This document shows positions 23,484 to 27,133 of a stretch of DNA of 64,000 nucleotides, piece by piece. This stretch comes from Cutibacterium sp. (GTDB taxonomy: Bacteria; Actinomycetota; Actinomycetes; Propionibacteriales; Propionibacteriaceae). The translations under genes and the position numbers were made by a program. Below the pieces are notes generated by a model, which was not told the DNA's origin, ran no database searches, and saw only the letters and a list, made by a program, of their open reading frames with translations. Where the stretch lies: assembly GCF_030525615.1 (NCBI RefSeq), contig NZ_JAUNEJ010000001.1:688696-752695 (forward strand). Direction: 5' to 3'. How positions within the stretch are numbered: the stretch's first letter is position 1; the number at the start of each line of letters is the position of its first letter.

Positions 23484-24989
23484 ATGACCCACGCACCGCA
23501 GCGGTTACGTGATAATGCTCCGCAAACCCCCGCCGGAGCAACGTGTGGAGACCAGCAAAAAACTACCAGCGCAGCAACCAACGGAGTCGTCGATCGCGGC
23601 GACCAGGGGTATGCCGCAACCTTGAGTAATCGCCAGGTTCAGATGATGGCGATCGGCGGGGCAATTGGCGTCGGTCTCTTTCTTGGGGCAGGCAGTCGGT
23701 TACGCAGCGCCGGGCCGGCAGTCCTCATATCGTACGCATTCTGCGCACTCATCGCTTTCCTTGTCATGAGAGCGCTCGGTGAGCTGGTTATTCATCGTCC
23801 CTCTAGCGGTTCTTTCGTGTCCTATGCTCGAGAACTCCTCGGCGACCGCTGGGCTTACGCGGTCGGTTGGATGTACATGCTCAACTGGATGACCTCGGGC
23901 ATCGCCGAGCTGACCGCCATAGGTACGTATCTGCAATTCTGGTGGCCCGATCTACCAATGTGGATACCCTCGCTCATCGCTTTGGTCATCCTTGTGACGG
24001 TCAACCTCATTAGCGTCAAGGCTTTTGGAGAATTTGAGTTTTGGGCCGCGTTACTCAAAGTGTTGGCCTTGACGGCATTCATTGTCGTCGCCATTGGTCT
24101 CGTTGCCGCTCACGTCAATGTCGGCGGCCACCGAGCGGCGGTGTCAAACCTCTGGAACTTTGACGGCGGATTCGCCCCGCAGGGGGTCCTGCCGTTGATC
24201 CTTGTCATCCAAGGTGTCATCTTCGCCTATGCCACCATCGAGTTAGTTGGCACTGCCTCCGGAGAGACTCAGAATCCTCGCAAGGTCATCCCTAAAGCTG
24301 TCCACGCGGTCGTATTCCGGCTCATCGTGTTCTACCTAGGGTCCTTGGCTTTGCTAGCCATGTTGCTGCCATACAACGAATACTCTGCTGACGAATCCCC
24401 CTTTGTCACAGCTTTTTCAGCTATGGGAGTGGGGTGGATAGGGGACGCCATGAATGTGGTCGTCATTACCGCAGCTTTTTCGTCGGTCAACTCCGGATTG
24501 TACGCGACGGGTCGGGTACTCAAATCATTGGCAGCTGCGGGAGAAGCTCCAAAATTCGCGGGCACCCTCAACCGATACAAGATACCCGCCGGTGGAATCC
24601 TTTTGACTGCAAGCGTTTTCCTCCTCGGCGTCGGGCTGGAGTACATCGTTCCCGAACGCGCTTTCGAGATATCGATCAACACCGCTGCGGTGGGCGTGAT
24701 CTGGACATGGGCGACGATCTTCTGGTGCCAACTGAGGTTGCGCAGACGAGTGAATCAAGGTCTGATCGCTGATTCCGGTTTTCATATGCCGGGATACCCG
24801 ATCACGGGGATTTTCGGCATCGTCAGCCTCGTCGGAGTCACGGCTCTCATGGTGCTCGATCCTCAGAACCGAATCGTGCTGGCAGCATCCTTGATATACA
24901 TTGCGGTCATGTTCCTCGCGTGGCCAGCCGTTAAACGTAACAAGGCGCGCCATCCCGAACTCAACGCCCAAGAAAGCATCACGTTCTGA
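23484..24989 (+). CDS. APC-superfamily amino acid permease (AnsP/AroP-like)
   Basis: LSNRQVQMMAIGGAIGVGLFLGAG, FGEFEFW, GETQNP, SSVNSGLYATGR; about 12 hydrophobic segments. Confidence 0.9.
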   Translation: MTHAPQRLRDNAPQTPAGATCGDQQKTTSAATNGVVDRGDQGYAATLSNRQVQMMAIGGAIGVGLFLGAGSRLRSAGPAVLISYAFCALIAFLVMRALGELVIHRPSSGSFVSYARELLGDRWAYAVGWMYMLNWMTSGIAELTAIGTYLQFWWPDLPMWIPSLIALVILVTVNLISVKAFGEFEFWAALLKVLALTAFIVVAIGLVAAHVNVGGHRAAVSNLWNFDGGFAPQGVLPLILVIQGVIFAYATIELVGTASGETQNPRKVIPKAVHAVVFRLIVFYLGSLALLAMLLPYNEYSADESPFVTAFSAMGVGWIGDAMNVVVITAAFSSVNSGLYATGRVLKSLAAAGEAPKFAGTLNRYKIPAGGILLTASVFLLGVGLEYIVPERAFEISINTAAVGVIWTWATIFWCQLRLRRRVNQGLIADSGFHMPGYPITGIFGIVSLVGVTALMVLDPQNRIVLAASLIYIAVMFLAWPAVKRNKARHPELNAQESITF

Positions 24990-25032: not shown

Positions 25033-26124
25033 TCAGTACACCATCTGCATAGCTTTGCGCACTTCTGTCAGTGTTTGATCTGCCACGACTGCGGCCTTCG
25101 CATTACCAGCTCGAAGAACCTCACGGAGATAGCCTTCATCGGCCGCCAGTTCCGCTCGACGTTCACGAATCGGTGCGAAATAGTCATTGAGAGAAGCGGT
25201 GAGCCGCTTTTTCAAGGTGCCTGAACCACCGTCGCCAACTTCCTCAGCGATGGTGGCCGGATCACCGTTCTCGCATAGTGCCGTCAGCAGTACCAGATTC
25301 GAGACCTCCGGACGGTTCTCCGGGTCCCACGTGATGTGACGCTCGGAATCCGTCTTGGCCTTTTTAATGAGCTTGGCCGTCTGATCGGCGGTCATACCAA
25401 TCTCGATGGTGTTGCCTTTTGACTTGCTCATCTTGGTGCCGTCCAGACCAAGCACGTGTGGGGTCGCCGACAGCAAGGCTTCAGGCTCGGGAAAGACCGG
25501 CTTGGAGACGTCAGCACGTCCGTATCTCTCGTCAAAACGTCGGGCGATGACACGGGTCTGCTCGATGTGCGGTAATTGATCTCGGCCCACCGGGACAAGG
25601 TTTGCCTTGCAGAAGAGAATGTCGGCGGCTTGGTGTACTGGAAAGGTGAGCATGAGACCCGACATCGGGCGGTCTGAGGTGGCCAACTCGTCTTTGACAG
25701 TTGGGTTGCGACGCAGCTCAGCGTCGGTGACCAGGGATAGGAAGGGCAGCAGCAGCTGATTGAGGCTTGGCAGAGCCGAGTGAGTAAATATCGTGGTACG
25801 GCTCGGGTCGATGCCGATAGCAAGATAGTCGGCGATGTTTGACATCACGTTGGTCTGCAGATCACCGACGCCATCACGGTCATAAATGACCTGGTAATCG
25901 GCGATGACAAGATAGGACTCGATACCCTTGTTTTGTAGACGCACCCGATTAGCCAGGGACCCGAAGTAGTGGCCGATGTGCAGACTTCCGGTGGGACGAT
26001 CTCCAGTGAGAATCCGCCATTTCTCGGGGTGAATGGCTAAATCGGCCTCAACTTTGTCGCTGCGAGCCTGTGAGCGCGCCAAGGTAGCAGCGTTCGAACC
26101 GATCTCAGAGACGTCGCCGGTCAT
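25033..26124 (-). CDS. trpS: Tryptophanyl-tRNA synthetase (TrpRS II-like)
   Basis: TGDRPTGSLHIGH, FPVHQAADIL, VPVGRDQLPH, GTKMSKS. Confidence 0.95.
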   Translation of the reverse strand: MTGDVSEIGSNAATLARSQARSDKVEADLAIHPEKWRILTGDRPTGSLHIGHYFGSLANRVRLQNKGIESYLVIADYQVIYDRDGVGDLQTNVMSNIADYLAIGIDPSRTTIFTHSALPSLNQLLLPFLSLVTDAELRRNPTVKDELATSDRPMSGLMLTFPVHQAADILFCKANLVPVGRDQLPHIEQTRVIARRFDERYGRADVSKPVFPEPEALLSATPHVLGLDGTKMSKSKGNTIEIGMTADQTAKLIKKAKTDSERHITWDPENRPEVSNLVLLTALCENGDPATIAEEVGDGGSGTLKKRLTASLNDYFAPIRERRAELAADEGYLREVLRAGNAKAAVVADQTLTEVRKAMQMVY

Positions 26125-26130
26125 CGATAA

Positions 26131-26187
26131 TCCTTCCTCGCCGCTCTCTCCTTGGCGACGAGGGGACGCCGCCGAGTGAGGGCGGCC
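26131..26187 (-). promoter_or_regulatory. Alternative-hairpin attenuator upstream of trpS
   Basis: Minus strand GCCGCC-ctcactc-GGCGGC (1:2), GGCGGCG-tcccct-CGTCGCC (2:3), CCTCGTCGC-caaggagaga-GCGGCGAGG (3:4), the last abutting the AAGGA SD. Confidence 0.7.
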
Positions 26188-26196
26188 GTTACATCG

Positions 26197-26253
26197 TCAG
26201 TGCCGCACCCAGCGACGCCACCATGAGGTGGCATTCGCAGGTGCAGTCGTCAT
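26197..26253 (-). CDS. Trp-rich leader peptide MTTAPANATSWWRRWVRH
   Basis: 18-codon ORF with TGG-TGG-CGT-CGC-TGG, ending 72 nt upstream of the trpS ATG. Confidence 0.8.
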   Translation of the reverse strand: MTTAPANATSWWRRWVRH

Positions 26254-26272
26254 AGCGGTCACTGTAGCAGTC

Positions 26273-27133
26273 TCACCGGACGCGAAGAATTCCACCGCGC
26301 ATTTGAATCCTCGTCACAAGCTCCCGGTAGGCAGTCTCACGGGTGAGATTGCATCCCAGTTCGTGACCTTTCTTGCCCGAGCCGTGGTAATCGCTGGCGC
26401 CAGTGCGGACCAATCCGAGCCGTCCACCCAAGTCAAAAAGCATTCGCCGGGTTACCTGATCGTGGTCTTGGTGTTCCACCTCAATACCGTCAAGCTGGTG
26501 ATATGCAGACAACGAAGCGATGACTTGAGGGGTGAGAACCTGCTGAGCTCCTCTACCCCACGGATGGGCGAGGATGACGACGCCGCCGGCGTTGTGGATC
26601 AGGTCAATACCCTCCTCCAGCGCCACGCTGTGCCGCGGCACATATGCAGGTTTACCGTCAGAAAGCCAGTCTCGGAAAGCCTCGTCGCGATCTTCGACGT
26701 ATCCCTTGGCCACCATGGCGTCGGCGATGTGTGGCCTGCCCAAGCTTGAGGCCGAGCCAGCAGCTCCACGCACGTCCTGCGTCGTCAAGGCCATTCCGGC
26801 CTCAGTAAGTTTCTGGCAGATGGCGTCTAGACGACCCAGTCGCGAGGCACGAGTGATCTGCAACTCCTTACTCAGAGCGGGATCGTCAGGACGCGACCCG
26901 TAACCGAGAAGGTGGACATCGCGGTCACCAATATGACACGTCATCTCAAGACCGGGAAGCAGCCGGACGCCGAACCGTTGCCCAGCTGCCTGAGCCTCCT
27001 CCAGCCCATCAAAGGTGTCGTGGTCAGTCAGAGCAATAACGTCCAGACCACTCGTGGCAGCTTTCATCATGAGGCGGGTCGGGGAGTCCGTCCCGTCTGA
27101 AATCGTGGAATGGGTATGGAGATCGATCCTCAT
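26273..27133 (-). CDS. PHP-domain metal-dependent phosphoesterase (TrpH/YciV-like)
   Basis: DLHTHSTISDG, ALTDHDT, VHLLGY, GRPHIADA, LAHP, GASDYHG. Confidence 0.9.
   Translation of the reverse strand: MRIDLHTHSTISDGTDSPTRLMMKAATSGLDVIALTDHDTFDGLEEAQAAGQRFGVRLLPGLEMTCHIGDRDVHLLGYGSRPDDPALSKELQITRASRLGRLDAICQKLTEAGMALTTQDVRGAAGSASSLGRPHIADAMVAKGYVEDRDEAFRDWLSDGKPAYVPRHSVALEEGIDLIHNAGGVVILAHPWGRGAQQVLTPQVIASLSAYHQLDGIEVEHQDHDQVTRRMLFDLGGRLGLVRTGASDYHGSGKKGHELGCNLTRETAYRELVTRIQMRGGILRVR

Follow-up and report, generated by a model that had tools for sequence, protein, structure and literature searches.

Streptomyces genomes contain two TrpRS genes, trpS (SCO3334) and trpS2 (SCO4839). The indolmycin-resistant enzyme of Streptomyces is TrpRS1, which we infer to be the product of SCO3334, and work by Vecchione and Sello from 2010 is said to place its gene, trpRS1, under ribosome-mediated transcriptional attenuation. 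Attenuators of trpS have been predicted in Streptomyces only, from a genome set that included P. acnes (Seliverstov 2005; PMC1262725). The trpL2-trpS unit of S. lividans has a leaderless trpL2 and two hairpins, with no U-rich stretch (PMC8079986). The Streptomyces precedent for the attenuation of auxiliary TrpRS genes, on which the initial annotation of the locus described here had drawn, is therefore real (PMC1262725, PMC8079986). In E. coli, another synthetase gene, pheST, is controlled by a leader peptide (pheM) rich in its own amino acid (PMC1262725). No description of a trpS leader in Cutibacterium or other Propionibacteriaceae was found in the papers that were searched.

The locus analysed here lies in a 64,000-nucleotide stretch of Cutibacterium DNA (the window, by which we mean this whole stretch). 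All features of the trpS leader region are on the minus strand, in the order PHP gene, leader ORF, hairpins A, B, and C, and trpS (Table 1). The PHP stop codon and the leader ATG are separated by 19 nt. The leader stop and the trpS start are separated by 72 nt, which are G-rich and almost wholly structured. The 18-residue ORF with the W-W-R-R-W motif that had been noticed previously is confirmed, and its tandem Trp codons are the candidate sensing site. We consider it probable that charged tRNA-Trp is sensed in this region by a leader-peptide attenuator of the ribosome-mediated type, homologous to that of Streptomyces trpRS1 and placed before the sole TrpRS gene of Cutibacterium.

Table 1. Positions of the genes, RNA structures, and signals of the trpS leader region in the window.
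Feature	Position	Strand	Description
PHP-family phosphoesterase gene	27133..26273	minus	TrpH/YciV-like; TGA stop 26275-26273; 3′ end carries the trpS promoter region
-10 box TACAGT	26261..26266	minus	Same sequence in 8 Cutibacterium species; 7 nt from the leader ATG, on its 5′ side
Leader ORF	26253..26197	minus	18 codons plus stop, MTTAPANATSWWRRWVRH; ATG 26253, TGA 26199-26197
Hairpin A	~26246-26203	minus	Predicted MFE pairing between the front of the leader ORF and the Trp-codon region plus GGGUGC
Tandem Trp codons UGG UGG	26223-26218	minus	Candidate sensing site; conserved
Third UGG	26211-26209	minus	Window's species only
Anti-B (antiterminator-like) strand	26202..26210	minus	GGGUGCGGC; just before the stop codon; predicted partner 26178-26186
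Hairpin B	26168..26186	minus	GCCGCC, 7-nt loop, GGCGGC; 6 bp, no U-run
Alternative helix B 3′ arm/C 5′ arm	26154..26173	minus	GGCGGCG (26167-26173) with CGUCGCC (26154-26160)
Hairpin C	26136..26163	minus	Arms CCUCGUCGCC and GCGGCGAGG around a purine-rich loop; immediately precedes the SD; CCUC/GAGG pairing
SD core AAGGA of trpS	26131..26135	minus	6 nt before the ATG; GGAAGGA/GAAAGGA in all Cutibacterium and sister-genus sequences
trpS	25033..26124	minus	363 aa, ATG at 26124; Pfam tRNA-synt_1b, TIGR00233

The trpS gene is present in a single copy and is the sole TrpRS gene in the genome, which has no canonical TrpRS. Its product shares 58–65% identity with leader-bearing copies, other than SCO3334, from Streptomyces, Kitasatospora, Microbispora, and others, compared with 32–38% identity with canonical TrpRS from related families. 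The closest solved structure is D. radiodurans TrpRS II (9e-67), while canonical enzymes score approximately 1e-37. Based on these comparisons, the TrpRS of the window is assigned to the TrpRS-II or "auxiliary" clade. The gene is not an auxiliary copy here: it is the only trpS of the genome, although its clade is of the auxiliary type. A sole TrpRS that comes from the TrpRS-II clade raises the question of whether Cutibacterium is naturally insensitive to indolmycin-type inhibitors.

The PHP protein encoded directly upstream resembles TrpH/YciV, RNase RNM, and nucleoside-bisphosphate phosphatases, with scores below the NCBIfam cut-offs. The PHP gene is directly upstream of trpS in many Propionibacteriaceae (loci L002-L008, L012, L014, L015, L017, L019, and L020), and this adjacency recalls the trpH-trp neighbourhood in E. 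coli. Outside the window, at G000:C4:547380-547830 of the same genome, trpE starts within GAGTGATGA and overlaps the stop codon of a hisI-like gene; neither a spacer nor a leader ORF is present between the two. A genome-wide pattern scan retrieved no other convincing WW leader. Since trpE has no leader, trpS appears to be the sole Trp-codon-controlled gene of the genome.

Between positions 24000 and 28000, no match of the leader to RF00513 (Trp_leader), RF00230 (T-box), or any other Rfam family was found (cmscan, E ≤ 10). The Cutibacterium leader resembles E. coli trpL (RF00513) in its tandem Trp codons and in mutually exclusive hairpins that would be set by ribosome position. Unlike E. coli trpL, it precedes a synthetase gene rather than a biosynthetic operon, its mRNA is probably leaderless, and it has no U-tailed terminator. 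It differs from the pheST system in amino acid and phylum, and also in that the pheM terminator is a classical U-tailed one.

Several features are common to the Cutibacterium leader and Streptomyces trpRS1 (SCO3334, SAV4725, and S. lividans trpL2-trpS). Both precede a TrpRS of the same clade, within the range of identity given above. Both have a short leader with Trp codons near its end that is leaderless (probably so in Cutibacterium), with a -10 box 6–7 nt before the start. The pairing scheme is also common to both, with a GC-rich hairpin whose 5′ arm can be claimed by an antiterminator strand of the GCGGCC/GGCCG type. Copies in Streptomyces, Kitasatospora, Microbispora, and others have leaders of the type ...SWWRSS followed by the stop. 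In Streptomyces, WW is 2–3 codons before the stop, whereas the Cutibacterium leader is longer, at 18 codons, and has WW 6 codons before the stop. The partner of its Trp-codon region in hairpin A is ORF sequence further upstream instead of a downstream segment, its terminator homologue is cut to 6 bp, and a second, look-alike hairpin abuts the SD. The Streptomyces gene is an antibiotic-resistance spare, in contrast to the only TrpRS gene of Cutibacterium. The trpRS1 attenuator has been shown experimentally. Because the S. lividans member also lacks a U-rich stretch, an intrinsic terminator may not define the trpRS1 attenuator family.

A search for mini-ORFs with WW (≤45 codons, within 300 nt upstream) was performed on 96 non-redundant trpS loci of the clade. 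Such a mini-ORF is present at 38 of these loci, whereas the reverse-complement control and the shuffled sequences yield 2 and 2.0, respectively, indicating that the WW leader occurs beyond chance. It is found with this trpS clade in Propionibacteriaceae, Streptomycetaceae, Streptosporangiaceae, Micrococcales, and Acidimicrobiia. Within the genus, the orthologous leader ORF carries WW in 8 of 10 Cutibacterium species when the window's species is counted (7 of the 9 others). Of the two exceptions, one has Cys-Trp with a single Trp (L004) and the other has no Trp at all (L011). Conservation of the Trp codons across the genus, a check put forward with the initial annotation, therefore applies to the first two codons, which are also kept in other genera; at the third position, other Cutibacterium species have UGC or another codon.

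The mean leader identity within Cutibacterium is 81.6%, whereas fourfold-degenerate sites in the trpS gene next to it reach 50.5%, and the element is thus under purifying selection. The best-conserved blocks are the -10 box, CCUCGUGGUGGCGU with the Trp codons, GUGCGGCACUGA, the arms of B, the stem of C, and the SD. Among them, GUGCGGCACUGA is nearly invariant, even at third codon positions. Sister genera in the Propionibacteriaceae have shorter leaders (MTARSWWRA, MHKRICWWRP, and MQQWWWPSA, each followed by the stop) and then GC-rich hairpins, most with U-containing tails. For example, MTARSWWRA is followed by GACGGCCGUUUUUU. At the position of B, relatives have AACGGCCGCC..GGCGGCCGUU (G017) or GGGCCGU..ACGGCCC, followed by U-rich tails. 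Judged from this alignment of positions, hairpin B is a shortened positional homologue of the sister-genus terminator.

The species without any Trp codon (genome G002; L011:2577-2700, minus strand) has also lost hairpin B. Its uORF (approximately 38 codons, leaderless) spans the hairpin-C region. Since this uORF ends in ATGA over the trpS start, attenuation seems to have been replaced in G002 by simple translational coupling. As one species has no Trp codon and another has only one, Trp control can be regarded as dispensable. These two species bear on a different reading, according to which no amino acid is sensed in the genus and the element is a relic kept as a promoter, a leaderless uORF for ribosome delivery or mRNA stability, and protective 5′ hairpins. 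The degenerate state of the terminator homologue B and the full read-through seen in RNA-seq (see below) are in line with such a relic. However, UGG UGG and GUGCGGCACUGA are among the most conserved parts, the leader evolves far more slowly than synonymous sites, and pairing that depends on ribosome position is predicted for all WW-bearing species. We regard a relic as very improbable and a sensing function as likely.

The -10 box is not confined to Cutibacterium, and in other genera a TANNNT box lies 6–7 nt ahead of the start codon in approximately 32 of the 38 WW leaders. To locate the transcript, three raw-read RNA-seq runs from one study (stranded paired-end 2026 libraries) were mapped on the C. 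acnes-like orthologue L003 (L003:2400-3000). The ends of fragments accumulate at L003:2704/2703, which lies 12–13 nt into the leader ORF. For tmRNA and RNase P RNA, which served as calibrators, these libraries remove 8–9 nt from the mature 5′ ends, at sharply defined positions (L111:1863-1872; L113:1501-1511). Because these calibrator RNAs lose 8–9 nt, the true 5′ end should be at the AUG or within approximately 3–4 nt of it; the calibrator-corrected boundary is 3–4 nt inside the ORF, not exactly on the A of the AUG. Read depth there rises 2- to 9-fold relative to the PHP gene in the three runs. The sharp 5′ boundary at the leader indicates that trpS has its own promoter. With a transcription start at the leader AUG or a few nt away from it, a leaderless mRNA is the probable template for translation of the ORF; the RNA-seq 5′ ends are consistent with such a start, short of proof. 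A second -10 box that fits the corrected boundary (CACTAT/CGACAT) was considered and rejected, as it is not conserved. Published P. acnes TSS tables, which give KPA171202 coordinates and locus tags only, do not mention trpS.

Read-through from the PHP gene amounts to 10–50% of the trpS level. Relative to the upstream gene, trpS transcripts from its own promoter reach 11.7, 5.4, and 1.9 in the three runs, an approximately 6-fold spread across runs with unspecified conditions. The operon-like setting described in the initial annotation, with a 20-bp distance to the PHP gene, thus stands as to the short gap (19 nt), but trpS is not merely operon-internal given the conserved -10 box and the jump in depth. 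Neither a fall in depth from the leader to the trpS ORF nor a pile-up of 3′ ends after B or C was seen in the three runs, in libraries that RNAs of 90–115 nt mostly escape.

A 176-nt stretch of the leader region is predicted to fold at -78.2 kcal/mol (z = -3.1 compared with shuffles) into the three hairpins. Hairpin A recurs in the consensus fold built from 9 sequences, with conservation supplying most of its support, and all 10 pairs of C are retained in the 9 sequences. Compensatory changes occur at 2 of the 36 consensus pairs, in Cutibacterium sequences that are too similar to one another for strong covariation support, and the Cutibacterium alignment has a gap in the 5′ arm of B that would distort the columns of the on-state. 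A terminator scan found no terminator-like site with a U-run; the tails of B and C are GUCCCCUCG and AAGGAUUAU, respectively. The last hairpin does abut the trpS SD without a U-run, as had been claimed. The hairpins previously designated 1:2, 2:3, and 3:4 also exist, including the pairing of the B 3′ arm with the C 5′ arm, but account for no more than the downstream section of a longer relay. Contrary to what this designation had implied, the switch begins within the ORF: the ribosome-sensitive strand GUGCGGC (26208-26202) sits just before the stop codon, where it would compete with hairpin A and the 5′ arm of B.

Leaders of the his type form a multi-hairpin relay of more than four pairing segments and end in a canonical terminator. 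T-boxes sense uncharged tRNA directly and need no leader peptide. The Cutibacterium leader is like a his-type leader in having more than four pairing segments in a relay, and like the ileS T-box in having an SD structure instead of a terminator.

Hairpins B and C look alike (GCCGCC..GGCGGC and GUCGCC..GGCGGCG), and a duplication of B may be the origin of C. Arms this GC-rich and repeat-like yield alternative pairings readily, which counts against the attenuator reading. As the arms are so similar, a long alternative hairpin that joins B5′:C3′ and B3′:C5′ is possible, and this is the lowest-energy single hairpin in most of the Cutibacterium species examined. In most Cutibacterium species, the loop of C (26136-26154 region) contains GGAG/GGAGG, an SD-like motif that no start codon follows and that may serve as a standby site or simply reflect a high purine content. 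Autoregulation of TrpRS through a tRNA-mimic operator was also considered, and was rejected since the alignment shows no conserved CCA anticodon-like loop in B or C.

Equilibrium folding with ribosome masks always favours B together with C (or the terminator), in canonical and Streptomyces members as well. Since this test cannot discriminate, folding before emergence of the 3′ arm was used instead. With the ribosome on the second Trp codon, GUGCGGC is predicted to pair with GCCGC, and 83% of the 5′ arm of B is paired upstream; with the ribosome on the stop codon, this upstream pairing falls to 0%. The contrast of 83% and 0% refers to all seven Cutibacterium leaders tested. In the whole leader set, in silico anti-B pairing occurs in 35 of 37 leaders with the ribosome on WW, compared with 13 of 37 with the ribosome on the stop codon. 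When the ribosome is stalled and the C 5′ arm has emerged, the B3′:C5′ relay with anti-B is the predicted MFE structure, and with the C 3′ arm free B3′:C5′ is the best fold in 5 of 9 species. The anti-B helix has just 5–8 bp. At equilibrium, the on-state is 7–16 kcal/mol less stable than B and C, and C forms whichever position the ribosome takes. The in silico foldings argue for an alternative pairing that would depend on ribosome position, and the greater equilibrium stability of B and C implies that the choice must be kinetic and co-transcriptional.

From these elements, we infer that the leader is translated, that ribosomes stall on WW, and that an output step follows. Transcription would begin from the own promoter of trpS, at or a few nt from the leader AUG. 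In untranslated RNA, hairpin A would hold GUGCGGC, and a ribosome at the stop codon would cover the same strand. With GUGCGGC unavailable, B would form and leave the 5′ arm of C free, so that C could form beside the SD, giving a low-expression state. When Trp-tRNA is scarce, a ribosome stalled on UGG-UGG would melt A and expose GUGCGGC for pairing with the 5′ arm of B. The 3′ arm of B, thus freed, would pair with the 5′ arm of C, delaying C and raising trpS expression. Candidate outputs would be U-less termination, partial SD occlusion, or Rho. A kinetic choice favours control of elongation (U-poor termination or pausing at B or C) over a lasting change in SD access.

Actinobacterial ileS T-boxes reportedly act by SD sequestration and would be a precedent for sequestrators that replace terminators in the phylum. 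Accordingly, the output could be translational, with a Trp-sensing leader that opens or closes C and thereby sets ribosome loading on trpS. C ends at AAGGA, no U-run is present, over 90% of the ensemble has the GAGG of C paired whatever the species, and RNA-seq depth does not drop between the leader and the ORF. In the window's species, an outer GUCC/GGAU extension of C also covers part of the SD core. This extension is not conserved, however, and the AAGGA core lies outside the conserved stem, with a predicted accessibility of 0.23–0.80 depending on the species. Moreover, C forms at equilibrium regardless of the ribosome, so a lasting change in SD access is not predicted. SD occlusion, which the initial annotation had favoured, retains the constant pairing of GAGG on its side, but the largely variable opening of the core and the insensitivity of C to ribosome position make translational attenuation a doubtful account.

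The missing intrinsic terminator would also suit Rho-dependent termination, which had been offered as the alternative to SD occlusion. A ribosome that has finished the leader would free the RNA for Rho to stop transcription before or in early trpS, while stalling on WW would keep Rho from loading, either through the ribosome itself or through the RNA structures that it brings about. For cys operons of Mycobacterium and P. acnes whose leaders lack a U-run, Rho has been suggested (PMC1262725). The spacer between the leader stop and trpS, however, is unlike a C-rich unstructured rut site, being G-rich and almost fully structured over its 72 nt, and we consider Rho very improbable here. The preferred reading remains an attenuator homologous to that of Streptomyces trpRS1. 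Compared with the initial annotation, this reading is of the same kind and differs in where the ribosome-sensitive strand lies, in giving trpS a promoter of its own, and in relying less on SD occlusion.

The Cutibacterium annotation gains a mini-ORF, which is probably leaderless, and a promoter, both unannotated so far. The leader travels with its TrpRS clade across Actinomycetota. The device has been proven only for the spare, antibiotic-resistant TrpRS of Streptomyces, and a probable further case now precedes the only housekeeping TrpRS gene in a major commensal of human skin, as well as trpS in many other actinobacteria. Together, these loci provide a natural series for high-GC attenuators, in which U-tracts are rare, from U-tailed terminators in sister genera through the U-less two-hairpin form to loss with a coupled uORF. 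A further-reaching and rather unlikely proposal is that the U-tailed ancestral terminator was replaced by a three-step relay (anti-B, B3′:C5′, and C) at the RBS, through which the sole, essential TrpRS would be tuned by Trp-tRNA, either by leader-peptide translational control or by U-less termination. If true, actinobacteria would have, besides their translational T-boxes, an equivalent that works through a leader peptide. A natural insensitivity of these skin bacteria to TrpRS-targeting antibiotics, along with a response to them, would then be suggested; their enzyme belongs to the clade that gives Streptomyces its indolmycin resistance. The practical interest is modest and concerns how C. 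acnes responds when Trp is limiting or TrpRS is inhibited.
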